Positions 8,033-49,175 of a stretch of 64,000 nucleotides of DNA are shown one piece after another. This DNA comes from a virus (lineage: Duplodnaviria > Heunggongvirae > Uroviricota > Caudoviricetes). The number at the start of each line of letters is the position of its first letter. The stretch's first letter is position 1. The stretch is taken from positions 219,305 through 283,304 of the IMG/VR virus record IMGVR_UViG_3300031949_000001, one strand, 5' to 3'. The position numbers were made by a program, and so were the translations under genes. The notes under the pieces were generated by a model that saw only the letters and a list, made by a program, of their open reading frames with translations, was not told where the DNA came from and did no database searches.

Positions 8033-9016
8033 TTAGAACTCCTTGTTCATCATGGAAAAGTACCATTCGCGGCACTTGTTATTTACTTCCTTAACAACCT
8101 CTTTCCACTCGAAGCCATTTTCGGTGATAGTGTCCGACTCTTCCTTAAGAATGTCGCCAGCCACCCACTTCATAAAAACTCCGAAATTCTGAGCAGTTTG
8201 TTCTAACTTCTGCTGGTTTAGCAAAACGTCAAGACCTTGCTTAAGCCTACCTTCCGGCAAAATAAGCTCAACACAAGCCCGGATACTTTCAACTCGTTCA
8301 ACATCAACTGGAGCAACCGTCTTTACCTTAGACTTAGAATGTAAAGTCCCTTTCGTTTTGAACCAGAGATCGCTATCTGTAGGTCTTTCGAGACATGTCC
8401 AAACGATACCTTCACCTAAACCAGAGATACCAAATGACTTAGCCCAAGGGCACTCTTCTTCAACCTGAGCGGTGTATTTCACGAATTCCGCAACAGACTG
8501 CTCCGGAGTCTTGAAGTTAACCTCAACTACAAACGGGTTTATACGATGAATGGTATAAACACCATTAACCTCAAGCCTAGAAGTGTCAAGCTTATTCATC
8601 TGAGAAACGTATTCACCATTGCGCTTCGCAGCAAAAATTACCCACTGCCTTCTTGGAAGCTGACTGATAGCAACTGTATCCTGAATACCTGGACCACACC
8701 ATTCTCCATAGATGGTGATATCATCATCCTTTTCAGTACCGATTTGATCAAAAAGATGATTCAAGTCGTCTTGATTAAGCGTCGCAATGAACTTGGCGAA
8801 GTTGTAGTTATCAGCGGTTACGTCGAGAATTTGTTCACGCGACTGCGGCTGGAATTTGCCATGGAAACGGCGAACGCCAGCGTTGGTTCCGTGCAGCTTG
8901 ACGGTGCCGATGAATGTAAGAGTTGGAATCAAGTGCGGAGAGCTAATTCTGTTGAAATGCTCTCGGACGTTCTTGACAACGTGTCTGAATTGTTCGATAG
9001 ATGTAAACTTTTCCAT
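8033..9016 (-). CDS. RNA ligase 2 (Rnl2-like nucleotidyltransferase)
   Basis: Motif I KLHGTN (T4 Rnl2 has KIHGTN), motif IV EGIVW, motif V FKTKG; 327 aa. Confidence 0.7.
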   Translation of the reverse strand: MEKFTSIEQFRHVVKNVREHFNRISSPHLIPTLTFIGTVKLHGTNAGVRRFHGKFQPQSREQILDVTADNYNFAKFIATLNQDDLNHLFDQIGTEKDDDITIYGEWCGPGIQDTVAISQLPRRQWVIFAAKRNGEYVSQMNKLDTSRLEVNGVYTIHRINPFVVEVNFKTPEQSVAEFVKYTAQVEEECPWAKSFGISGLGEGIVWTCLERPTDSDLWFKTKGTLHSKSKVKTVAPVDVERVESIRACVELILPEGRLKQGLDVLLNQQKLEQTAQNFGVFMKWVAGDILKEESDTITENGFEWKEVVKEVNNKCREWYFSMMNKEF

Positions 9017-13119: not shown

Positions 13120-13817
13120 TATACTACCTCCTTGTAATTCAGCTTATTCTTTTCAATCAACTGAGCTAACGAAATCGGCGTGAAACCAACCTGTTCAACG
13201 CTTACGTTAACGTGGTGTGGATGACCGGTATTTGAGTCGTGTGTGTGCCCATGGATGCCATAGTAGCCATCAGGCACGTGTGCATTCAATGGATAGTGTG
13301 TGAATATAAGATTACCAAGCTGATAAGCTGAATGAATCTCATCGAAATACAGCGTTCTCAATTTACCACCCTTATCAAGATCGTGGTTACCAAAAACCAA
13401 AATCTTATATCCTGATAGGCTTGCCAACATAGAGTTTGTAACGTGTGTACCGCCACGTTCAAATGTAACATCACCTACCCAAATGCTTACATCATCTGGT
13501 CCAACCGTCTTACGATAGTTTTCCAATAAGGCATGATTCATATCATCTGTATTGGAGTATGGGCGACCGGTATAACGAATAATGTTGTTGTGGAAGAAAT
13601 GGAGGTCACTCCAAATCCAAATTCTATTTGGATCGAATCCGATGAGGTCTTTAAAAGAACCTTCTATCTTAGCCGATGGAATAAAGTCTCTCCATGGGCT
13701 TGGGTCACGGACTTGGGGACGCGATGCGCGCTCTTCGCCCATCCTATCCGCCCGCATCCTTTCGTCTGGTGCTCTTAGGTTTCGAACATATAGTTCAATT
13801 AGTTTTTCGTACTTCAT
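13119..13817 (-). CDS. calcineurin-like metallophosphoesterase
   Basis: Motifs WSDLHF, GD, GNHD and GHTHD. The start was moved to the MKYEKL methionine, which has an AAGGA ribosome-binding site. Confidence 0.65.
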   Translation of the reverse strand: MKYEKLIELYVRNLRAPDERMRADRMGEERASRPQVRDPSPWRDFIPSAKIEGSFKDLIGFDPNRIWIWSDLHFFHNNIIRYTGRPYSNTDDMNHALLENYRKTVGPDDVSIWVGDVTFERGGTHVTNSMLASLSGYKILVFGNHDLDKGGKLRTLYFDEIHSAYQLGNLIFTHYPLNAHVPDGYYGIHGHTHDSNTGHPHHVNVSVEQVGFTPISLAQLIEKNKLNYKEVV

Positions 13818-14838
13818 TTTTGTTACTTTTTCCTTTATGTGTTGATTTTTTACAAAGGACGAATATTTGTGCTTTAGCTTCATTCCCCGTAAAAGTTTTT
13901 TCAATTATAGAATTCAAGACGTATAGCTTACCATATTTTACTACAGCTTCGCAAATGTCCTTACATTCACCTATTTCGGGCATGCCTATTGCCCATCCTT
14001 GTTCTATTCCACATAACGCCAATAAATGACCATCACCCCTCCTATCAGGAAGGATTATCTTTTTGCGAGAAGTTCTATTTAGTATTTTTATTTGTTCTGT
14101 CGAGAGTTCATTTCCCAAGACAGCAACACCTCCCAGGTGAAACGCGTCGAAGAAACCTTCTACAATGTACAGCGGATCATCTGTTTTGCGATGTATTTCA
14201 TCCATTCCGTACATCACATTTCCCTTCGGGATAGCAAGACTGAGATATTTTAAACGAGTTGAATTGTCGAGCAAGTCTCGCCCTTGGTAGAATATTAGTT
14301 TTTCTTGATGATAAAAGGGGATGATTAAACGAGCAACCCATTGCTTACTTTCCTTAGTGCCATCGTTCTTACCCGTAAAGAATGGATAGTCTCCCAAAGA
14401 CATAGATCTTTGAGTCTGAAGATGCTCTTCCGCCATCACGGCAATGGAGTTATTGGGATCGACTTTGAGGCGTTCGAAATAGCTCGGAAACTTAACTTCT
14501 TTAGGATAAAAGACCGATTCTTTCTTGACTTCTGGACTCTTAAGACCCTTTCTAATCGCCAAATCTTTGAGAATGATTCCATTCAATTCTTCTTCGGGAA
14601 TACCAAAAGCTGCGAGAACATCTCGCATCGCATCAGACATTTTGAAATTAGGATCATAGGTTGCCTTGGCTGGACAGTTGAAGCAATGATAGCCGACAGT
14701 ATCGCCTTCAAATTTGAAGCCACCACGCTTTTTATTGGCATGATCGTTACAGGCAAGACATCGAACGGGATGCCAACCCGAGGGCGTAGCATCGCCTAGT
14801 GAAATGTAGGTTCTAATTATTTCTTGTAGATCGTTCAT
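13795..14838 (-). CDS. DNA primase (T4 gp61/DnaG-like: zinc ribbon + TOPRIM)
   Basis: N-terminal zinc ribbon CLACNDH...CFNC and a TOPRIM domain (IVEGFFD, PDRRGDG). Confidence 0.7.
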   Translation of the reverse strand: MNDLQEIIRTYISLGDATPSGWHPVRCLACNDHANKKRGGFKFEGDTVGYHCFNCPAKATYDPNFKMSDAMRDVLAAFGIPEEELNGIILKDLAIRKGLKSPEVKKESVFYPKEVKFPSYFERLKVDPNNSIAVMAEEHLQTQRSMSLGDYPFFTGKNDGTKESKQWVARLIIPFYHQEKLIFYQGRDLLDNSTRLKYLSLAIPKGNVMYGMDEIHRKTDDPLYIVEGFFDAFHLGGVAVLGNELSTEQIKILNRTSRKKIILPDRRGDGHLLALCGIEQGWAIGMPEIGECKDICEAVVKYGKLYVLNSIIEKTFTGNEAKAQIFVLCKKSTHKGKSNKNEVRKTN

Positions 14839-14873
14839 GATGTCTCGAATTATGAACGATTATTGGCTGCGTG

Positions 14874-15500
14874 TCAACGGGGTTTCTTTTTCTTCTTAGC
14901 TGGTTTACGTTCAATCTGTTCTTCTTGGGTCATTTTGTTCAGGCGTTTACGAATTTCATCGGAATCCATCCAAATATCCCGCCCGCCTTGAATTTCTATA
15001 ACCTCTTCTTCGCTAAGGAATGGAACACAAATCTTTTTCAAAATCTTGTTGAACCATTTGTTAATCATTTCCAATTCTGCGGTAATCTCATGACCTTTAC
15101 CATACATGAGGTTGGAGTAATGGTGGAACATCATCAAACAATTTTCATGGATCTGAAGTTCGTCGCCTGATAGAAAAATGAGGGTTCCTAAAGAGTAGGC
15201 TCGGCTTTCTAGACTGGTGATGACATGAGCGTCGGTGGCTCGAATTGCATTGATAATCTGCATCCCGGTTTCGAGATAACCACCAGGAGTGTTTAAGTGA
15301 ATTGTGATAATATCATTTTCGTTTGCTGACCTGATTTTATGAATCATGTCAATGAATTCGGGTCCATCTCCAATCCCATCTGAAAGATAAATCGAAATGT
15401 GCTTGGATATTACTTTGTTTACGAAGATTTTGTAACCGTAAAACGCTTCGTTCTTTCTTTTCTTTTTATCTGTTTTTTCAGCAGGAATTTGATCAACCAT
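14874..15500 (-). CDS. ClpP-family serine peptidase
   Basis: NTPGG motif, AYSLGT (catalytic Ser context) and a downstream FHH histidine; 208 aa. Confidence 0.6.
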   Translation of the reverse strand: MVDQIPAEKTDKKKRKNEAFYGYKIFVNKVISKHISIYLSDGIGDGPEFIDMIHKIRSANENDIITIHLNTPGGYLETGMQIINAIRATDAHVITSLESRAYSLGTLIFLSGDELQIHENCLMMFHHYSNLMYGKGHEITAELEMINKWFNKILKKICVPFLSEEEVIEIQGGRDIWMDSDEIRKRLNKMTQEEQIERKPAKKKKKPR

Positions 15501-15515
15501 GTTGTTTCCTTTGTT

Positions 15516-16151
15516 TTATATTGTGAAACCGTTTCTTTTTAAGAATCTATTTAAATAATCATGTTTTGGATACATCTCACGCCGTTCTCTGGCATTTTTC
15601 CCCTCATCTAAATTGATCAACAATCCACTCTTAGACAAAGTCTTTAATCCCAACAAATCAATAATTTTTGATTCTGTTTCGAACGCTTTAGCTTCGGATA
15701 GATTTTCAGCAATTTTAATAGAAATTATTTCTTTGTTAGCTTTTAGAATTTTTGTTCGAATCTTTCTATGACCTTCGTTTCGATTAAAATCTAGATATCT
15801 ATCGTCGTTTCCTTTACCTACGTAGAATGGTTGGAATTGGAGATTGAACTTCAGTGCCAGAAAAACGAAACGAATATCATTTTTAACACGGATGGGGTCG
15901 AGCGGGTTACAATGAAGGTAAACATAATAATTATTCGAAGGATTGTTCGCTGGATAAAGACTAGACAAATCCGTAGCGTAAACAGATTCCATCAATGGAT
16001 AAATGTTATCCATATTATGCTTACACCCATCGAAATAAACTTCGTTGTAACCCAAAGAGCGAAGGATTTCTTTTCTTCGTTTTTGGAGTTTCGAAATTAA
16101 CTTCTTGAGGTCCGTTGGATCATCAATATCAACTTCAAAATTTCTTTTCAT
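15516..16151 (-). CDS. GIY-YIG-like homing endonuclease
   Basis: YVYL and FYVGKG motifs plus the R/H/E catalytic residues. The start was trimmed to MKRNF so that it follows the tmRNA terminator. The spacing between the two motifs is atypically long. Confidence 0.45.
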   Translation of the reverse strand: MKRNFEVDIDDPTDLKKLISKLQKRRKEILRSLGYNEVYFDGCKHNMDNIYPLMESVYATDLSSLYPANNPSNNYYVYLHCNPLDPIRVKNDIRFVFLALKFNLQFQPFYVGKGNDDRYLDFNRNEGHRKIRTKILKANKEIISIKIAENLSEAKAFETESKIIDLLGLKTLSKSGLLINLDEGKNARERREMYPKHDYLNRFLKRNGFTI

Positions 16152-16159
16152 AGTTGCAA

Positions 16160-16457
16160 GAAACTCGGTGGAATTGGTTAACAAGGCTCCACCGAAAACC
16201 CCGGTCAAGATTAGGCTGCTACGCCGTAAACATCCTCGACATTGTAAAATGCGTCATTTGCATTTAGTTTTTGCTACTTCACGGTGTTCGCCTACCGAGT
16301 TGCTCTAATAGGTACATTATCATGCCCCCGTCGAATCCTGTCATCCCCATAATTTAAGAGATAACCACCATTGTACATCTTGGTGGAGATGCCGGTCTAC
16401 GATAACCGGGTCCGAAAACACTTTCCACAATTCGAGTTTACAACCATTAACTACACT
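16160..16457 (-). ncRNA. ssrA: two-piece (circularly permuted) tmRNA, ssrA-like
   Basis: The minus strand reads GGGGATGACAGGATTCGACGGGGG (compare E. coli GGGGCUGAUUCUGGAUUCGACGGG). A tag reading frame follows: GCA AAT GAC ... GTA GCA GCC TAA, giving ANDAFYNVEDVYGVAA. Upstream in the gene lies the acceptor piece, GGAAAGUGUUUUCGGAC-CCGGU-loop-ACCGG-CATCUCC-A-CCA, which includes a conserved G3-U70 wobble. Confidence 0.75.
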
Positions 16458-16464
16458 AGTATTT

Positions 16465-16493
16465 ATCGTACCATCAAATCCAAGTCTCGTCAA
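16465..16493 (-). promoter_or_regulatory. sigma70-like promoter for the tmRNA
   Basis: TTGACG, 17-nt spacer, TACGAT on the minus strand just 5' of the acceptor piece. Confidence 0.35.
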
Positions 16494-16504
16494 CTATGAT
16501 TTTA

Positions 16505-16699
16505 CTAGTAATTTCGAGACAATTTTGCTAATTCTCTATTGATCCAATTGATAGCTCCGTTCTTAGAAAAGAAGCCACGCTGAAAGAATGGCTTAGAGTC
16601 ACCCACCTGAAAGAAGTCTACATCCACGAACGCGTGATCGCGCCCATGAATAGCAAACGTTAACCCTCGAAAATTTCCAAATGTATAAACGTTTTTCAT
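16505..16699 (-). CDS. hypothetical small protein
   Basis: 64-aa ORF overlapping the DHFR stop by 4 nt. Confidence 0.35.
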   Translation of the reverse strand: MKNVYTFGNFRGLTFAIHGRDHAFVDVDFFQVGDSKPFFQRGFFSKNGAINWINRELAKLSRNY

Positions 16700-17238
16700 C
16701 GCATTACCCTCTCATAATGAACGAAATAGGTGTCTTTACTCTCGACCCCGTCTAATATCTTAAACTTTTTTGTTAGTTCTGTTATTGGAAAAAATTTATC
16801 ACAATCATAATATCCTTTTACAATTGTGCAATATATATCCTTTACATATGGCAAGAATTCAAGGTAAAGCTTCTCGCCACCAATTACAAACAATGTTTGA
16901 ACCTTATTTTCTACCATGGCTTCTTTTTGGTACATGATGCCTCGAAGCCAACCAATCCGTTTTGCACCATGAGGTTTGAATTCCTCGTTTCTGGAAAGTA
17001 CAAAACTTGTCCTCCCGCGCAATAGAGGTCCATCTTCGCGTAGTCCTCTATTTAGCTTATCTTCATGAATTTCCTCGTAAGTATTGCGCCCCATAACTAC
17101 AATATGACCGTTCGTCAATTCCTTGAATCGCTTCAAGTCTTTCTTATAGAATGGTTGATCCTTCCAAGGGGTCTTGAAATTCTTTGCAAACCCGCCGGCT
17201 TCATCCAAAGCGACCGCAATCGCTATGTTGTTGATCAT
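16696..17238 (-). CDS. frd: dihydrofolate reductase
   Basis: N-terminal IAVALDEAGGF, PW and VVMGRNTYE motifs; 180 aa. Confidence 0.85.
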   Translation of the reverse strand: MINNIAIAVALDEAGGFAKNFKTPWKDQPFYKKDLKRFKELTNGHIVVMGRNTYEEIHEDKLNRGLREDGPLLRGRTSFVLSRNEEFKPHGAKRIGWLRGIMYQKEAMVENKVQTLFVIGGEKLYLEFLPYVKDIYCTIVKGYYDCDKFFPITELTKKFKILDGVESKDTYFVHYERVMR

Positions 17239-17756
17239 TTGGTGCCTTTCGTCTTAGCCCAATTTAAATTAAGTTCTTCCAAATATTCCGTATCAAACTC
17301 TAAATCGAAATCAACTTCCGGCAACTTGCTCACATCCAGATCACCAATATCATATGACAAGGTTATGTGCGTCTCATACTTATCGTAATCAAACGTAGCA
17401 CCATGTTCTTTCATCAATTCTTCATGTCGCTTAACTAGAGCGGGGCACTTGAACTTTAAAACTAAACAGTTTGCTTTTTCCTCGTTTGGATCTTCCGGTG
17501 TTGTTTTCCACACCGTAAATCCTACCGTCTTGCCAACATAAGGGACATCTAGTTTACCAGCAGGTTTGTAATTTGGTAAGTGCTTTCTGCTGTAGAGAAT
17601 GGTCGTATGAAGTTTATCTGCCTTGACCGGGAGTGGAATCTTGTTATCTTCCATGTAGTCAGCCAGATTTTCTTTTGTTTCTTGGCTAGGTTTTACACCT
17701 GCGTAGATGCCTCGAACTGTTTTTCTTTTTTCTTCAAGGATTTCTTTTATTTTCAT
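17235..17756 (-). CDS. 2H phosphoesterase (LigT/Acb1-like)
   Basis: Two H-x-T/S-x motifs (LHTTIL and THITLS) about 70 residues apart; 173 aa. Confidence 0.6.
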   Translation of the reverse strand: MKIKEILEEKRKTVRGIYAGVKPSQETKENLADYMEDNKIPLPVKADKLHTTILYSRKHLPNYKPAGKLDVPYVGKTVGFTVWKTTPEDPNEEKANCLVLKFKCPALVKRHEELMKEHGATFDYDKYETHITLSYDIGDLDVSKLPEVDFDLEFDTEYLEELNLNWAKTKGTK

Positions 17757-24349: not shown

Positions 24350-24376
24350 ATGGGGTGTAAAACACCCCATTTTTTA
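24350..24376. terminator. bidirectional rho-independent terminator
   Basis: ATGGGGTGT-aaa-ACACCCCAT hairpin flanked by A6 on the 5' side and T6 on the 3' side. Confidence 0.6.
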
Positions 24377-25237
24377 CTCTGCGGTCTTTTCGGTTGCAAT
24401 AATCCATGACTTGACGAACTCACTTCGAACAATATCATCTGTCGTGAATTTAACTGAAGCAAATTCGGGCATTGTTTCTATTGTTCTAAGAAATCGTTTC
24501 ATACCAGACTTGTCGTTGGACTTTTTATCTAAGTCTGTTTGAACGATATCACCGGTAAAGATGACCTTTGAATTGGTTCCGACTCTTGTCATGACGGAAT
24601 TAATTTCATGCCATGTCATGTTTTGACCTTCATCGATAACGATGATAGTGTTATCCCAAGTCAAACCACGAATGTAGGAAGTTGTCGTAAATCGGACCAA
24701 GCCGGTCTCCTTCATGTCATCATATGTCGATGCACGACCAAATAATTCTGACATGATATCGATGTATGGAAGTTCATAGAAGCGTGTTTTGTCTTCAAGA
24801 GATCCTGGCATGAAACCCAATTCGCGGGTTGCTACAGCGGAACGAACGATTCTTAAATGATAATACGATGTATTGCCATCTAGAATGTCACACATTGCAA
24901 GGTATAGGGCTAGAAATGTTTTACCGGTTCCGGCAGAACCTGAAGCACAAATTTGGTATCCCAAATTATGCAGTTTGAACATTTCTTTTTGATTATCTGT
25001 TAAGGGTTGTATTGCTCTGATATCATGTTTGGTCCATTTCTTTCTTTGTGGACCATCTAACATTGCTGCCTGATTATTGGATATGAGATGTAAATCTGCC
25101 TGTTTTTGCTTAGTTTTGTGACCTGCGTTCTTAGACATATCTTTGTCCTTTTTAATAGGTTGGTGTGTTACAAACTCGCTTACTGCCGAACTTATTTTAC
25201 ATAGCCACCCCCTTTCATTCAGTTTAAAGTTGATCAA
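24374..25237 (-). CDS. phoH: PhoH-like ATPase
   Basis: Walker A motif GSAGTGKTF and Walker B motif IVIDEGQN. Confidence 0.85.
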   Translation of the reverse strand: MINFKLNERGWLCKISSAVSEFVTHQPIKKDKDMSKNAGHKTKQKQADLHLISNNQAAMLDGPQRKKWTKHDIRAIQPLTDNQKEMFKLHNLGYQICASGSAGTGKTFLALYLAMCDILDGNTSYYHLRIVRSAVATRELGFMPGSLEDKTRFYELPYIDIMSELFGRASTYDDMKETGLVRFTTTSYIRGLTWDNTIIVIDEGQNMTWHEINSVMTRVGTNSKVIFTGDIVQTDLDKKSNDKSGMKRFLRTIETMPEFASVKFTTDDIVRSEFVKSWIIATEKTAE

Positions 25238-28667: not shown

Positions 28668-30140
28668 TTAGAAGTCGTACTGAAGACGCATCATAATTAC
28701 CTTCTCACCATTTGTCTTAGCAACAGATGGTGTTGAAGCAGCTTGAGAGACAATCACTGGACTGTTGAATTTAGTATCAACATAGTTCAACATTAGACGA
28801 GTTCTTGGATTAAGAATCCAATTCACACCATATGTGATAGATGTTGCGCTAGTTGTAAATGCTGCACTCGCTGTTGAAGTAGGAATGACACCTGTACCAG
28901 CCTTACCGGTTGCGAAATCATCAGCATTAAACTGACTGAAACGAATACCAACTTCCCACCCACCACCACTAAGAGTCTTATAGTCAAAATCTTTCTTTGG
29001 TTTCATACGGTCGAACTTGCCATCCTTATACCGATCAGCGTAATGTTCACCCGTGATCATCCACATTATATCCACATAATTACTGGTGATTTTTTTGTCG
29101 TAGCCGACATTGGCTACCGAAACTCCACTGTAGTTGACTGACATCATTTCAGTTTGTATCTTAAAATTCTTATAAGCTAATACACCTTCAAGACCGGTAC
29201 GAGTCCGGGACAAATCAGCTCCAGTAAATGTACTCGGTGTAAAAAATATGATACCACGAGATTCAGTTCTACCGCTTACTGCCGCTCCGATTGGCTCGGT
29301 GCCTGTTGTGTAGCCAATTCCAAGATGAACAACAGTGTCTTTCCAAGAAAACAATTCAGCAAAGTTGATTGTGCCGCGTGCGATAATATCATTGCTATCG
29401 ACCGTATTTACTGTTTCGTTTGCGTTCTTACCTTGACCAGTAGACAATGCCAATGCATATGTGGTACCAGCCAATGGTGTACCATGAACCATGATACCGC
29501 GTTCCTTATTAGGAACCATCGAATTACCCATCGAACGTTCCATGAAATCGGTGAACAAGTCGCTTGTCATCTCTTCCAAACTGAAAGGCATCTTGAATTG
29601 ACCAACGCGGAACTGTGCTTCTTTCCAATAGTTGACGTTTAAATATGCTTCGTCAAGTACGCTTGCTCCACTACCACCACCGAAATCACCAATTATAAGC
29701 CATTCATACGAACCGTAGAATTTACCCTTCAAACCCAAAAAGCCTCTACGAATGTCGAATGTATTTGCTGTTGCGCCTGCCGCATCACCACCAAACTTAC
29801 GATAATCAAGTTGTAGACGAACTGTTGGGGCGAATGAGAAATTTTTGTCAGTACTTTCAAAAACCAAAGAACCGTCTTTAAGTTTACCTTTTACATCTGT
29901 TTTTGCGTTTTCCTTTGCTTTCTCTTTAGCTTCTATGTCCTGGGCTACCCTTAGAGCGGTTGCTCTACGATCAGCCCGTTGTGTTAATGTTTCCTCTTCA
30001 TGCTGGTTCGAAAGCGTCTTATACTCATCATCAGTTAATTTACCACTGTCATGAAGTGTATCGAGAAGATTAGTCGTTGTATCTGCATACACGAATCCTA
30101 TGCACATACTCAATGCGATTGTCATAATTAATTGTTTCAT
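28668..30140 (-). CDS. phosphate-selective porin O/P-like outer-membrane beta-barrel
   Basis: Signal peptide, alternating amphipathic strands and a C-terminal ...LQYDF with terminal Phe. Shares an operon with pstS. Confidence 0.6.
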   Translation of the reverse strand: MKQLIMTIALSMCIGFVYADTTTNLLDTLHDSGKLTDDEYKTLSNQHEEETLTQRADRRATALRVAQDIEAKEKAKENAKTDVKGKLKDGSLVFESTDKNFSFAPTVRLQLDYRKFGGDAAGATANTFDIRRGFLGLKGKFYGSYEWLIIGDFGGGSGASVLDEAYLNVNYWKEAQFRVGQFKMPFSLEEMTSDLFTDFMERSMGNSMVPNKERGIMVHGTPLAGTTYALALSTGQGKNANETVNTVDSNDIIARGTINFAELFSWKDTVVHLGIGYTTGTEPIGAAVSGRTESRGIIFFTPSTFTGADLSRTRTGLEGVLAYKNFKIQTEMMSVNYSGVSVANVGYDKKITSNYVDIMWMITGEHYADRYKDGKFDRMKPKKDFDYKTLSGGGWEVGIRFSQFNADDFATGKAGTGVIPTSTASAAFTTSATSITYGVNWILNPRTRLMLNYVDTKFNSPVIVSQAASTPSVAKTNGEKVIMMRLQYDF

Positions 30141-30142
30141 GG

Positions 30143-31117
30143 TTATTCCTTAGTTTCCATTTTAATTAGTTGCTCGATGGTTAGTCCTACTTTATTCTCT
30201 CCACCGAATTTTGTTCCGAATTTTTTACTTCTAGCGTGTGTTAGATTGTATTCATAAGCATGAACAGGCAAAGGCACATACTTGACTTCTTTAACTAATT
30301 TCGGCGCGTTCTTCATGTAGTACTCTATGAATCGTTGAACTTCCGATCTTTCGAAAGACCTTGCATTAACATAGATAAAGAGAGGTCTGGATAATGGTTG
30401 ATAAGTACCGTTCATAACTGTTTCTACGGAAGGACCGACCGGCTTTGCCCCAGTCTTGGAAATGATTAGAACTGCCCTTAGTTTGTTACGATTTTCATCA
30501 AAATAAGCAAACCCAAAATATCCAAGCGAATTCACATCTTGAGAAACGCCTTGAACTAGAACATTGTCATCTTCGCTCGCAGTAAAGTCACCACGAGAAG
30601 ATTTGGTTTTTCCAACAATAGCTTCGGTAAAATAATCAAATGTTCCAGAATCAGCACCGGGACCATAAAGCTTCAATTGAGTATTTGTCCATGCTGGATT
30701 TATTTGATTCCATTTTGTAATTTTACCCTGCGCCATCGGCTCCCATATTTTCTTTAGTTCTTCGACAGTAATGCTATTAAGCCAAGTATTTTTAGAGCTA
30801 ACAACAACAGTCAGAGCATCAAACGCAACTGGTAGTTCATAATACTGAATGCCGGCTACTTTACAAGCTTCCATTTCGGATTTGAGGATAGGACGAGACG
30901 CGTTAGCAATATCAATTTCGCCTCGACAAAACTTCTTAAACCCGCCGCCTGTACCAGAAATACCAACAGTAACTTTGGTGTGTGTCGATGATTGAAAGTC
31001 TTCTGCTACTGCCTCTGATATAGGAAACACTGTGCTCGATCCGTCTAGTTTAACTAACTGAGCATGTGCGGTTACAGAACAAAACAAAAAAGTAAGGATT
31101 GTTAGAACTGTCTTCAT
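30143..31117 (-). CDS. pstS: phosphate ABC transporter substrate-binding protein
   Basis: Signal peptide plus [17 protein letters not shown] and GISGTGGG motifs; 324 aa. Confidence 0.85.
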
Positions 31118-33843: not shown

Positions 33844-33936
33844 AAACTGGAGCGTCCTGCGAAATTCGAATTCGCTCATTCACGTTGGAAGCGTGACATG
33901 CTACCGTTGAACACCAAGGACGCATTTAAATATTTT

Positions 33937-34039
33937 TGGAGCTTCTGGTGAGAATCGAACTCACACACTAACATTGTTATGAACACTCGTTAAAAATATT
34001 CATAGGCAATGTCAGAGGCTACCACTACATCACAGAAGC
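33937..34039 (-). other. tRNA-like element (T-arm + 7-bp acceptor stem + encoded CCA) of atypical length
   Basis: GCTTCTG pairs with CAGAAGC (7/7). T-arm GTGAG-TTCGATT-CTCAC, discriminator T, CCA. A D-loop-like AGTGGTAG is present. There are 68 nt between the acceptor and the T-arm where 41 are expected, so no canonical cloverleaf can be drawn. Confidence 0.35.
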
Positions 34040-49099: not shown

Positions 49100-49175
49100 T
49101 GGCGCGCAGTGTGGGAATCGGACCCACGACAATCGGTTTTAGAGACCGCTCCTCTGACCACTAAGGTAACTGCGC
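49100..49175 (-). tRNA. tRNA with CUA anticodon (amber suppressor; Trp-like anticodon arm)
   Basis: The minus strand reads GCGCAGT-TA-CCTT-AGTGGTCA-GAGG-A-GCGGT-CTCTAAA-ACCGA-TTGTC-GTGGG-TCCGATT-CCCAC-ACTGCGC-G-CCA. It is 76 nt with 7/7 acceptor pairs, U33, A37, anticodon positions 34-36 = CUA, and discriminator G73. The anticodon arm is nearly identical to E. coli tRNA-Trp (CCGGUCUCCAAAACCGG). Confidence 0.75.

Follow-up and report, generated by a model that had tools for sequence, protein, structure and literature searches.

Two-piece tmRNAs are encoded by Methylophilales phage Melnitz and by pelagimyophages (Buchholz et al. 2022, PMC9004378). The locus described here lies in a 64,000-nucleotide window, by which we mean the whole stretch of viral DNA that was analysed, and resembles those systems in carrying a permuted ssrA gene in an aquatic myophage-like genome behind an early promoter; in both cases the tRNA-like domain is of the alpha/beta-proteobacterial type and the tag has the form AND...AA. 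Unlike Melnitz, which has a glutamine riboswitch, the window gave no Rfam detection of such an element in the 3' region of its tmRNA. The window tmRNA also belongs to another phage clade, whose contigs reach about 350 kb, and it is located directly upstream of a ClpP-like gene and beside a homing endonuclease gene. Neither neighbour is reported for Melnitz ('Clp' is absent from the text of PMC9004378).

Mobile endonuclease genes have been described in comparable settings. The tRNA gene cluster of T4 harbours the gene for SegB, a free-standing GIY-YIG homing endonuclease (Brok-Volchanskaya et al. 2008, PMC2330249). Like the window gene, it is lodged in a large virulent phage next to genes for small stable RNAs and is found in some relatives but not in others; as proposed for the window gene, it is inherited together with flanking RNA genes. 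Outside the GIY-YIG motif, the two show no detectable sequence similarity, and the domain order is reversed, the window protein having its catalytic domain at the C-terminus. The window gene adjoins a two-piece tmRNA gene whereas SegB adjoins tRNA genes, the window family has 5'- and 3'-flank subfamilies, and cleavage by the window protein is putative. LAGLIDADG homing endonuclease genes occur in group I introns of bacterial tmRNA genes (tmRNA database paper 2025, PMC11915505) and, like the window gene, use the conserved tmRNA gene as a landing site. However, these are intron-borne and sit in the T-loop of standard one-piece bacterial genes, whereas the GIY-YIG genes considered here are free-standing, lie at the 5' or 3' border outside the mature RNA of permuted genes, and are found in viral or virus-like contigs.

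The protease gene has relatives in phrog_1827, including T5 clP and genes of jumbo phages such as RAS14, with tblastn identities of 30-36% and an early or replication-associated location as in the window. RAS14 has the same ligase-clp-primase order as the window clade, which differs from T5 clP and RAS14 in the placement of a tmRNA gene directly upstream of the protease. No function of any phrog_1827 member is described in the literature found. With bacterial ClpP (MEROPS S14), the window protease shares the fold, the handle helix and the Ser-His-Asp triad, and the end of the window tag, a hydrophobic residue followed by Ala-Ala, resembles tags recognised by ClpX. In contrast to bacterial ClpP, the window protein has a disordered, Lys-rich stretch in place of the N-terminal axial-loop region and carries an extra Lys-rich tail at its C-terminus.

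We place the locus at the 5' end of a block of early and replication genes carried by a large, uncultured phage of aquatic origin. The tmRNA, the GIY-YIG open reading frame (ORF) and the ClpP-like ORF listed in a preliminary description of this DNA were all recovered at the coordinates given there. Blastn of positions 14500-17300 against 50,697 cultured phage records returned zero matches, as did tblastn of the endonuclease against the same records; therefore, the phage has no close cultured relative. Considered as a whole, the locus is best explained as a stack of an active two-piece tmRNA, a ClpP-fold protease expressed by read-through and a homing GIY-YIG gene, a reading to which we assign a probability of roughly 0.7. 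A CTA-anticodon tRNA had raised the suspicion of TAG recoding, which we rejected: TAG terminates 9 of 76 long ORFs, and the studied genes are intact in the standard code.

The two-piece tmRNA gene and its tag

The tmRNA gene and its parts, all on the minus strand, are as follows.

16167-16487, minus strand: two-piece (circularly permuted) tmRNA gene, full extent of the RF01849 alpha_tmRNA match (Rfam)
16465-16493, minus strand: sigma-70-type promoter of the tmRNA, TTGACG, 17 nt, TACGAT, with TG upstream of the -10 (sequence)
16381-16445, minus strand: acceptor piece, comprising the 5' strand of helix 2, the T-arm, the 3' acceptor strand CAUCUCC and an encoded ACCA (read from sequence)
16349-16380, minus strand: intervening segment of 32 nt, putatively excised in processing (read from sequence)
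16194-16348, minus strand: coding piece, comprising the 5' acceptor strand GGGGAUG (G3:U70), the pseudoknot-1 region and the tag frame (read from sequence)
16211-16261, minus strand: tag frame GCA...GCC TAA, encoding ANDAFYNVEDVYGVAA* (read from sequence)
16167-16193, minus strand: 3'-terminal hairpin GGUGGAGCC..AAUUCCACC, without a proper U tract (sequence)

Two Rfam families exceeded their gathering scores in cmscan: RF04321 (tmRNA_permuted) with 97.1 bits and E 1e-17 at 16211-16445(-) (gathering 47), and RF01849 (alpha_tmRNA) with 52.3 bits at 16167-16487(-) (gathering 50). RF01850 (beta_tmRNA) reached 71.7 bits, under its gathering score of 84. ARAGORN called no tmRNA in the window or in the related contigs L044-L048, a result that we regard as a false negative because Rfam gives 97-125 bits for those regions. 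The tmRNA announced in the preliminary description is thus real, and its hairpin coordinates (16167-16193) match ours exactly, although the permuted order of the gene had been missed. In this order, the acceptor piece comes first (16445-16381), followed by the 32-nt spacer and by the coding piece from 16348; among relatives, the intervening segment ranges from 13 to 195 nt.

The two pieces pair through a 7-bp acceptor stem (GGGGAUG/CAUCUCC) followed by ACCA. Across 33 related loci we found eight different 7-bp acceptor stems, all of them complementary, with G3:U70 and the encoded CCA kept in every case. The GGAGCC..AAUUCC motif of the terminal hairpin is common to many phage two-piece tmRNAs. 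A T-stem is present, and the T-loop, UUAUCGUAGA, is non-canonical; together with the rejection by ARAGORN, this makes full activity of the window tmRNA uncertain. We noticed many viral contigs with ANDAF.. tags that could have been host ssrA genes at prophage ends, and these turned out to be permuted tmRNAs inside contigs up to 133 kb.

The resume codon GCA lies at 16261 and the stop codon at 16213-16211, delimiting a tag of 16 codons that starts with the Ala resume codon and ends with a hydrophobic residue, Ala-Ala and the stop. Tag frames are conserved, starting with AND.. and ending with xAA, and homologous tags were present in most related loci checked. Within the clade, the tags end in ALAA, RLAA, GLAA, GVAA, GIAA, AMAA or AIAA. 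Given this variation, the earlier suggestion that the GVAA ending could change recognition by ClpX or SspB appears weak. In Caulobacter, the tag has a VAA ending and serves as a substrate of ClpXP.

The phage tmRNA would be transcribed from its own sigma-70-type promoter, whose TTGACG...GATA(C/G)GAT arrangement recurs in the related loci L046 and L048. Host tRNA-processing enzymes may then cut the precursor into the acceptor and coding pieces, and host AlaRS would charge the product through G3:U70. Acting with SmpB, which we assume to be supplied by the host, the charged tmRNA could free ribosomes stalled on broken mRNAs during infection, leaving the released chains tagged with ANDAFYNVEDVYGVAA. 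No SmpB was found in the window, by a single approximate E. coli SmpB query that constitutes a weak test.

The ClpP-fold protease gene and its neighbours

14874-15500, minus strand: ClpP-superfamily serine protease gene, 208 aa, phrog_1827, triad S103/H126/D175 (Pfam, PHROG, fold)
13795-14838, minus strand: DNA primase gene, the invariant partner downstream of clpP (PHROG, synteny)

The 208-aa protein is a ClpP-fold member of the non-structural phage family phrog_1827, and is neither a capsid-module protease nor an equivalog of cellular ClpP. It matches PF00574 (CLP_protease) with 57 bits (cut-off 20.2) and the 'ATP-dependent protease' family phrog_1827 over its full length with 186.6 bits. 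Among 20 homologues, S103, H126 and D175 never vary, and they fall on the triad positions when aligned with solved ClpPs; the motifs by which the preliminary description had recognised a ClpP-family gene correspond to the catalytic Ser and His. The best 50 PDB matches of the AlphaFold model (Foldseek) are all ClpP, with TM of 0.6-0.7 and rmsd of 2.6-3.4 A, and the predicted fold includes the handle helix. At the same time, the protein scores 25-39 bits on the NCBIfam models of cellular ClpP, whose cut-offs of 228-361 it fails in every case. The N-terminal axial loops and helix A, which form the pore gate and the contact with ClpX/ClpA, are absent, the Pfam match beginning at model position 33. 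Residues 1-17 have pLDDT <50, the N-terminus is Lys-rich and variable within the family, and both termini are Lys-rich and predicted to be disordered. No AAA+ unfoldase was found among 37 scanned ORFs of the window.

A permuted tmRNA gene precedes clpP on the same strand in L001-3, L044, L046 and L048-L052, and this order is kept in 28 of 35 further related IMG/VR loci. Over about 45 loci, the neighbours are the tmRNA, DHFR and Acb1 (early) on one side and primase, topoisomerase II and RNR on the other. The clpP-primase adjacency survives without a tmRNA gene in L078, L084, L092 and Stenotrophomonas phage RAS14, and clpP-less relatives exist as well as tmRNA-less ones. The linkage of clpP to the primase gene is tighter than that to the tmRNA gene and, with relatives lacking one or the other, functional coupling between tag and protease is therefore not established. 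In other phage lineages, two-piece tmRNA genes lack a clpP gene in their vicinity. The ClpP-fold gene would hold an ancestral position directly before the primase gene, which has a promoter-like site of its own at 14849-14877. ORFs located between the tmRNA and clpP genes in L052, L066, L072, L075 and L083 were considered as further homing endonucleases; Pfam shows no nuclease domain in them and only a weak PRTase-like signal.

In many of the related loci, the spacer from tmRNA to clpP is 17-31 nt, and in relatives without the endonuclease gene the distance from the hairpin to the clpP start is 17-30 nt. A gap of this length after the hairpin is too short for a promoter, so clpP is most likely read through from the tmRNA promoter. 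No terminator-like sites were found in 14700-16800. The two genes are probably co-transcribed, as far as can be judged from the arrangement of these signals, and in the window clpP may likewise be expressed by read-through.

A GIY-YIG endonuclease family beside tmRNA genes

15516-16151, minus strand: free-standing GIY-YIG endonuclease gene, intact, 211 aa (Pfam, alignment, fold)
15528-16188, minus strand: segment present in the window, with 30 nt in its place in L044 (alignment)
16190-16530, minus strand: upstream arm of the divergent tract, 243/333 identical to L044, 98-100% further out
15441-15490, minus strand: downstream arm of the divergent tract, covering the first clpP codons, 40/50 identical to L044, then 100%

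The ATG at 16151, proposed earlier as the start of this gene, is the true start because the homologues begin with MKRNFEVD and are 211 aa long. The protein consists of an N-terminal domain without family match followed by a C-terminal GIY-YIG domain (residues about 75-185). Y76, Y78, Y110, G112, R118, R124, E160 and N180 are invariant in 12 sequences (YVY...YVGKG...R...E...N). The Pfam match to PF22945 is marginal (28.2 bits, cut-off 27), and by fold the protein comes closest to two GIY-YIG nucleases, PD-T4-3 and UvrC, with a modest Foldseek E of 2.9e-3. The N-terminal 70 residues gave no Pfam or PDB family match and no known DNA-binding module; the family profile gave only chance-level matches against PDB sequences, and NCBIfam and PADLOC gave none. 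In I-TevI and the Seg proteins, the catalytic domain is N-terminal and the DNA-binding domain (NUMOD, HTH or zinc finger) is C-terminal. The domain order of the window protein is therefore reversed relative to characterised GIY-YIG homing enzymes.

The gene is rare, with only 10 homologues among 5.8 billion proteins. A permuted tmRNA gene adjoins it in 20 of 21 loci (the window, L048, L053-L056, L095-L107 and L109), always in the same orientation and no more than about 120 nt away; the remaining neighbours differ, and the contexts are otherwise unrelated. In 12 of these 20 loci the endonuclease gene lies 3' of the tmRNA gene and in eight it lies 5', and the family consists of two subfamilies, one just 3' and the other just 5' of two-piece tmRNA genes. 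Relatives that share the GIY-YIG domain only have no tmRNA. Conversely, the endonuclease gene occurs in only 2 of about 37 tmRNA loci of the clpP clade and in 0 of 30 other viral tmRNA loci, so that relatives with and without it both exist.

The contig L044 is 97% identical to the window and has a tmRNA gene without the endonuclease gene. Here, 661 nt of the window correspond to 30 nt, between flanks that are 98-100% identical. Around the insertion, identity to L044 drops from 98-100% to about 73% over the whole tmRNA gene, and the window allele is more similar to those of the more distant phages L046 (88%) and L049 (86%) than to that of L044 (80%). Smaller divergent patches between the window and L044 are present elsewhere, at 17231-17380 and 14091-14190, which indicates that mosaicism is not confined to the insertion site. 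The divergent tract looks like a co-conversion tract, and co-conversion with a donor allele would explain a foreign tmRNA gene in an otherwise 98-100% identical genome. Overall, the pattern supports homing of the endonuclease gene that would be directed to tmRNA genes. The earlier proposal that the gene may have homed beside the tmRNA is strongly supported by the gene-free contig, by the divergent tract centred on the gene and by the recurrence beside two-piece tmRNAs. In this scenario, the GIY-YIG gene has inserted exactly between the tmRNA 3' hairpin and clpP; the endonuclease would cut gene-less tmRNA loci of co-infecting relatives, and donor-templated repair would copy the endonuclease gene, the donor tmRNA allele and the first clpP codons.

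Alternative readings and significance

Each of the three components can be read differently. The window tmRNA might be a decaying or inhibitory variant, for example a decoy titrating SmpB or AlaRS. Such a role has a precedent in the tag-less tmRNA-like RNA of mycobacteriophage DS6A (cited in PMC11915505), and it would be in line with the non-canonical T-loop, the failure of ARAGORN on the window allele and its closest relatives, and the beta_tmRNA score below threshold. We consider a decoy very improbable, given that the acceptor stem, G3:U70, CCA, resume codon and 16-codon tag ending in AA and a stop are all intact, that tmRNA features are kept with compensatory changes over the 33 loci, and that the permuted model scores 97 bits. 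The 208-aa protein could be a ClpP-related prohead maturation protease, in which case its adjacency to the tmRNA would be irrelevant. Its best NCBIfam match is indeed NF045542 ('head maturation protease, ClpP-related') with 72.7 bits, far under the cut-off of 120 however, and several head-maturation PHROGs score 59-92 bits, the best of them 91.8 against 186.6 for phrog_1827. Portal, scaffold and capsid genes were not found nearby in any of the roughly 45 loci, and the T5-like homologue sits between dnk and holin. T5 possesses a separate prohead protease. The distinction between ClpP and prohead proteases called for in the preliminary description therefore falls on the ClpP side, also by the early/replication gene neighbourhood, and a capsid role is extremely unlikely. 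For the GIY-YIG protein, the near-exclusive, same-strand association within about 120 nt in 20 of 21 loci would also be expected of a working partner of the two-piece tmRNA, either a nuclease that matures the precursor or a marker-exclusion weapon against competitor loci. In L048, the tmRNA promoter is followed first by the endonuclease gene and then by the tmRNA, so that the endonuclease gene belongs to the precursor transcript, and T4 SegB, the closest analogue, has recently been reported to be of advantage to its phage because it amplifies anti-defence loci (PMC13096335). Nevertheless, the gene is missing from the 97%-identical contig and from about 95% of the phage tmRNA loci examined, which makes it dispensable for tmRNA maturation. 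Bacterial two-piece tmRNAs, reportedly described by Keiler, Shapiro and Williams in 2000, mature without such a gene, and GIY-YIG domains are, to our knowledge, DNA nucleases in every characterised case. A working partnership is thus quite improbable, and we retain the reading of a selfish homing gene.

The remaining alternative is the model of the preliminary description, in which the tmRNA and the ClpP-like protease form one module and a phage-encoded chamber, with or without host ClpX/ClpA, degrades tagged chains for amino-acid recycling or host-protein removal. In its favour, the same-strand order is found not only in the 28 of 35 IMG/VR loci but also in every metagenomic relative examined, including those with as little as 40% ClpP identity; the gene content ahead of the tmRNA varies while the tmRNA-clpP order stays; short spacers and the lack of a detected terminator suggest co-transcription; and the catalytic triad is intact. 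Against it, every locus shares the clp-primase-topoisomerase block, so the adjacency may represent one evolutionary event within a single synteny-sharing phage clade. The protease gene keeps its place beside primase without a tmRNA in three of the related loci and in the cultured phage RAS14, and T5-like phages, which are not known to have a tmRNA, also carry the protease; two-piece tmRNAs of other phage lineages, in turn, do without a nearby clpP. The protein itself has no counterpart of the N-terminal axial loops by which ClpP contacts ClpX/ClpA, falls short of all NCBIfam ClpP cut-offs, and is accompanied by no AAA+ unfoldase among the 37 window ORFs. We therefore regard a shared tag-and-protease module as unlikely, and favour the reading in which an active tmRNA, a read-through protease and a homing endonuclease are stacked at the locus.

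The analysis defines a large uncultured phage clade in which the clpP-primase-topoisomerase block has a tmRNA gene fixed in first position, probably sharing a transcript with the ClpP-fold protease gene. This clade gives a testable hypothesis for the role of phage tmRNAs, which have so far been catalogued, and of the orphan T5-type 'Clp protease' family. A bolder and distinctly doubtful extension is that, in this freshwater and sediment clade, tmRNA and protease would form an early transcription unit for virus-run tagging and destruction without host ClpP, with the GIY-YIG family shuffling tmRNA alleles and their tags. If so, the Lys-rich termini of the phage protease would stand in for the ClpX-docking loops, and the tagged chains would come from ribosomes stalled on degraded host mRNAs.

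As far as the literature searched shows, no family of free-standing homing endonucleases had been linked to tmRNA genes before the GIY-YIG family, only intron-borne LAGLIDADG genes having been found there in earlier work. The GIY-YIG family would represent a natural case of horizontal exchange of tmRNA alleles between phages, and it may serve as a marker to find phage tmRNAs that ARAGORN misses. The family is also a possible source of new sequence-specific nucleases, in which the N-terminal domain may recognise DNA.

The tmRNA gene and its tag

We show that the window carries a circularly permuted tmRNA gene on the minus strand, accompanied on the same strand by the endonuclease and ClpP-like ORFs that a preliminary description had reported with it. 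The permuted model RF04321 matched 16211-16445 (-) with 97.1 bits (cmscan; gathering score 47, E = 1e-17). The alpha-type model spans 16167-16487 (52.3 bits against a gathering score of 50), and the beta-type model, with 71.7 bits, is under its gathering score of 84. The tmRNA call thus stands, although the two-piece nature of the gene had been overlooked. On re-reading the sequence, the hairpin, the endonuclease start and the tag ending were all placed correctly.

Features of the locus (tmRNA pieces, resume codon, tag and hairpin as read from the sequence)
16493-16465, minus strand: sigma-70-type promoter, TTGACG-17-TACGAT, ahead of the tmRNA
16445-16381, minus strand: acceptor piece, its 3' end formed by the T-arm and CAUCUCC-ACCA
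32 nt, minus strand: intervening segment between the two tmRNA pieces
from 16348, minus strand: coding piece, first bases GGGGAUG
16261, minus strand: resume codon GCA
16213-16211, minus strand: stop codon of the tag ANDAFYNVEDVYGVAA
16193-16167, minus strand: 3' hairpin without a proper U tract
15516-16151, minus strand: GIY-YIG endonuclease gene
14874-15500, minus strand: ClpP-like gene
13795-14838, minus strand: DNA primase gene

Because the coding piece opens with GGGGAUG, the acceptor stem carries the G3:U70 alanine identity pair. Among the 33 related loci whose acceptor stem could be located automatically, we found eight sequence variants, each perfectly complementary, and all loci have G3:U70 and an encoded CCA. 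Tag frames share one form across related loci: an initial AND, an aromatic amino acid at position 5-6 and a final xAA before the stop. ARAGORN did not call the gene at 16167-16487, probably because of the non-canonical T-loop of this allele, UUAUCGUAGA. One E. coli SmpB probe recovered no SmpB gene from the window, and we assume that host SmpB would serve the phage tmRNA.

Segment length between the pieces varies among L046, L056, L089 and other relatives, with extremes of 13 nt and about 195 nt; the window has 32 nt and the metagenomic contig L046 (4513-4971) has 155 nt. A hairpin motif at the 3' end of the coding piece, GGAGCC...AAUUCC or GAGC...AUUC, is kept across very different phage two-piece tmRNAs (window 16167-16193, L003, L043, L046, L054, L056 and L095-L102), and an unrelated hairpin, GGUGGGUUUUC...GAAAAACCCACC, takes that place in L044, L048 and L049. 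The conserved hairpin may serve as a functional RNA element; alternatively, the endonuclease target may include it, in which case the other hairpin would be a resistant allele.

It had been suggested that the GVAA ending of the tag could alter recognition by ClpX or SspB. However, this ending is one of several in the clade of related phages sharing the clp-primase-topoisomerase block (also ALAA, RLAA, GLAA, GIAA, AMAA, AIAA and RKAA), and the Caulobacter tag, which ends in VAA, is reportedly degraded by ClpXP. Therefore, the ending alone is not evidence of altered recognition.

An endonuclease family at two-piece tmRNA genes

By sequence comparison, the endonuclease gene is an insertion between tmRNA and clpP. 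The near-twin JGI contig L044, 96.7-97.2% identical to the window across 8.3 kb, has clpP 29 nt after the tmRNA and no endonuclease ORF between them, such that 661 nt of the window (15528-16188) correspond to 30 nt in L044. The ORF is also missing in relatives at 83%, 64%, 59% and 57% ClpP identity. It encodes 211 aa from a start at 16151 that homologues back, with all GIY-YIG catalytic residues present and invariant across 12 sequences. The Pfam match is marginal (PF22945, 28.2 against a cut-off of 27), and the best PDB folds for the structural model (pLDDT 80) are GIY-YIG nucleases, namely PD-T4-3 (E = 2.9e-3, probability 1.0), followed by UvrC. The catalytic domain sits at the C-terminus, in contrast to I-TevI and the Seg proteins; the N-terminal ~70 residues matched nothing in Pfam or, with a family profile, among PDB sequences.

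A search of 5.8 billion clustered proteins returned only 10 homologues. In each of the four homologue contigs retrieved, the gene lies directly beside a same-strand permuted tmRNA. The other neighbours there (tRNA arrays, NAMPT, gp32/gp59) are unrelated to those of the window, and no clpP lies close by. Scanning metagenomes with the aligned family added 14 full-length relatives, 13 of which abut a permuted tmRNA, as does the partial relative L109. Overall, the association holds at 20 of 21 loci, window and L048 included. Rfam searches found no tmRNA at five relatives sharing only the GIY-YIG domain, nor did ARAGORN, which misses the window's own tmRNA, at the other ~60. At 12 loci, 13-121 nt separate the tag stop from the start of the ORF, which lies right after the 3' hairpin; at eight, the ORF ends 0-100 nt ahead of the tmRNA 5' end or overlaps it. 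The two positions match two sequence subfamilies wherever context is known. The neighbouring tmRNAs encode very diverse tags (e.g., AKQNLPVFAFAA, ADAPKAFAAAA, ANENSVNDQDFALAA); hence, the family has moved between many lineages of tmRNA.

Homing has to be weighed against a role in maturing the tmRNA. In L048 (3930-5010), the tmRNA promoter is followed first by the ORF and then by the tmRNA, with the stop codon of the ORF overlapping the mature 5' end, so the endonuclease mRNA would be a leader of the tmRNA precursor. The gene is nevertheless rare, and related phages mostly carry the tmRNA without it (it occurs at 2 of ~37 tmRNA loci of the clpP clade and at none of 30 viral tmRNA loci outside that clade), which fits a selfish element and speaks against maturation. 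The sequence around the insertion bears on homing as well. Window-L044 identity, computed per 50-nt bin, is 98-100% on both sides of a divergent tract, drops to 243/333 (73%) exactly over the tmRNA gene (16530-16190), stands at 40/50 over the opening 50 nt of clpP and then returns to 100%. The window tmRNA allele is nearer those of the more distant phages L049 (86%) and L046 (88%) than that of L044 (80%), as homing with flank co-conversion predicts. Because smaller divergent patches occur elsewhere (17231-17380, 14091-14190), the tract is consistent with co-conversion rather than conclusive. Together with the empty site in L044 and the 20 of 21 loci, it strongly supports the earlier proposal of homing beside the tmRNA gene.

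Other mobile-looking nuclease genes lie at different intergenic sites of the same block in relatives, and the region appears to be a hotspot of such insertions: a classical GIY-YIG + NUMOD3 ORF separates Acb1 from DHFR (contig of P0004), and the primase gene is followed by a DUF723 ORF in L046 (6661-7401).

The ClpP-like protease and its linkage to the tmRNA

The protease had been described as a ClpP-like subunit, and the fold assignment holds. The ORF matches Pfam CLP_protease (57 bits, cut-off 20.2), the Ser103/His126/Asp175 triad is invariant in an alignment with solved ClpPs and 19 homologues, and the 50 best PDB matches of its AlphaFold model (pLDDT 75) are bona fide ClpPs (TM 0.6-0.7). 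Docking to host ClpX is not established: the axial-loop N-terminal region has no counterpart, its place being taken by a Lys-rich stretch that varies and is modelled with low confidence, and NCBIfam ClpP models score 25-39 bits against cut-offs of 228-361. Judged from these profiles, the protein is not an equivalog of cellular ClpP. The top NCBIfam match is "head maturation protease, ClpP-related" (72.7, cut-off 120). A capsid protease is nonetheless disfavoured, as the best full-length PHROG match is phrog_1827, "ATP-dependent protease" (186.6 bits), versus only 91.8 bits for the top head-maturation family. Gene context also argues against a capsid role, with tmRNA, DHFR and Acb1 on one side and primase, RNR and DnaB on the other; the homologue of T5-like phages lies between dnk and holin, and Stenotrophomonas jumbo phage RAS14 has the order ligase-clp-primase. 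On the distant viral contig L093 (IMGVR_UViG_3300035698_007087), which has no tmRNA, ~2 kb separates two ClpP-like ORFs of 225 and 243 aa.

In every metagenomic relative retrieved, the ClpP-like gene is preceded by a permuted tmRNA of the same orientation, and a ClpP-alignment search of IMG/VR found this arrangement at 28 of 35 further loci, down to 40% identity. The seven exceptions comprise two loci without upstream DNA, two distant homologues and three with DHFR, Acb1 or another ORF directly ahead of clpP (gaps 50-198 nt). Spacers of 17-31 nt between hairpin and clpP start are common. No terminator-like site was found at 14700-16800, making read-through from the tmRNA promoter into clpP likely. 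The adjacency is real and old, and probably transcriptional, yet it is a property of one clade. Gene-order analysis shows variable content upstream of the tmRNA and a conserved order of tmRNA-clp-primase-(two small ORFs)-topoisomerase II. Clp-primase is retained where the tmRNA is missing, also in the cultured phage RAS14; the protease is bound more tightly to replication genes than to the tmRNA. Independent co-occurrence does not support functional cooperation between tmRNA and protease, which we consider unlikely, and the proposed redirection of tagged proteins stays unproven.

Other genes of the window and relation to known elements

Two RNA ligase genes of different families (8033-9016 (-), PF09414; 43402-44493 (-), T4 Rnl1-type PF09511), with the tRNAs and tmRNA, suggest a capacity for RNA repair that would counter host defences cleaving tRNA or tmRNA. 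At 49100-49175 (-) lies a tRNA of amber-suppressor type, anticodon CTA (ARAGORN "tRNA-Pyl"; Rfam tRNA 61.4 bits); nothing in this portion of the genome points to TAG being recoded generally, since it ends 9 of 76 long window ORFs. Adjoining tRNA-Gly(TCC) (33848-33923), a 100-nt tRNA-like sequence at 33940-34039 (-) (Rfam tRNA 39.2 bits, ARAGORN silent) has normal acceptor stem, D-arm and T-arm and ~27 extra nt in the anticodon region, and may be an interrupted or intron-containing tRNA. The Acb1 anti-CBASS phosphodiesterase gene (17235-17756 (-); PF23474, 130 bits) adjoins DHFR throughout the clade, in varying order. Auxiliary genes for phosphate acquisition encode PhoH (24374-25237 (-)), a phosphate-selective porin O/P homologue (28668-30140 (-), 118 bits) and a PstS-like periplasmic binding protein (30143-31117 (-)); porin genes are uncommon on phages.

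Two-piece tmRNAs are known from 53 of 402 tmRNA-bearing phage genomes in a study that also discusses tagging of host proteins (Buchholz et al. 2022, PMC9004378), and huge phages carry tmRNA with SmpB (PMC7162821). Homing endonuclease genes in tmRNA genes are reported only as LAGLIDADG types carried by group I introns of the T-loop (PMC11915505). The nearest analogue of the present element is T4 SegB, in a tRNA gene cluster (PMC2330249). Our literature searches returned no tmRNA-clpP arrangement and no free-standing endonuclease family tied to tmRNA genes. Here, the locus combines known kinds of element, 1) a phage two-piece tmRNA, 2) a T5-type Clp-like protease and 3) a free-standing GIY-YIG endonuclease. 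The tmRNA-specific endonuclease family and the conserved tmRNA-clpP-primase block are new.
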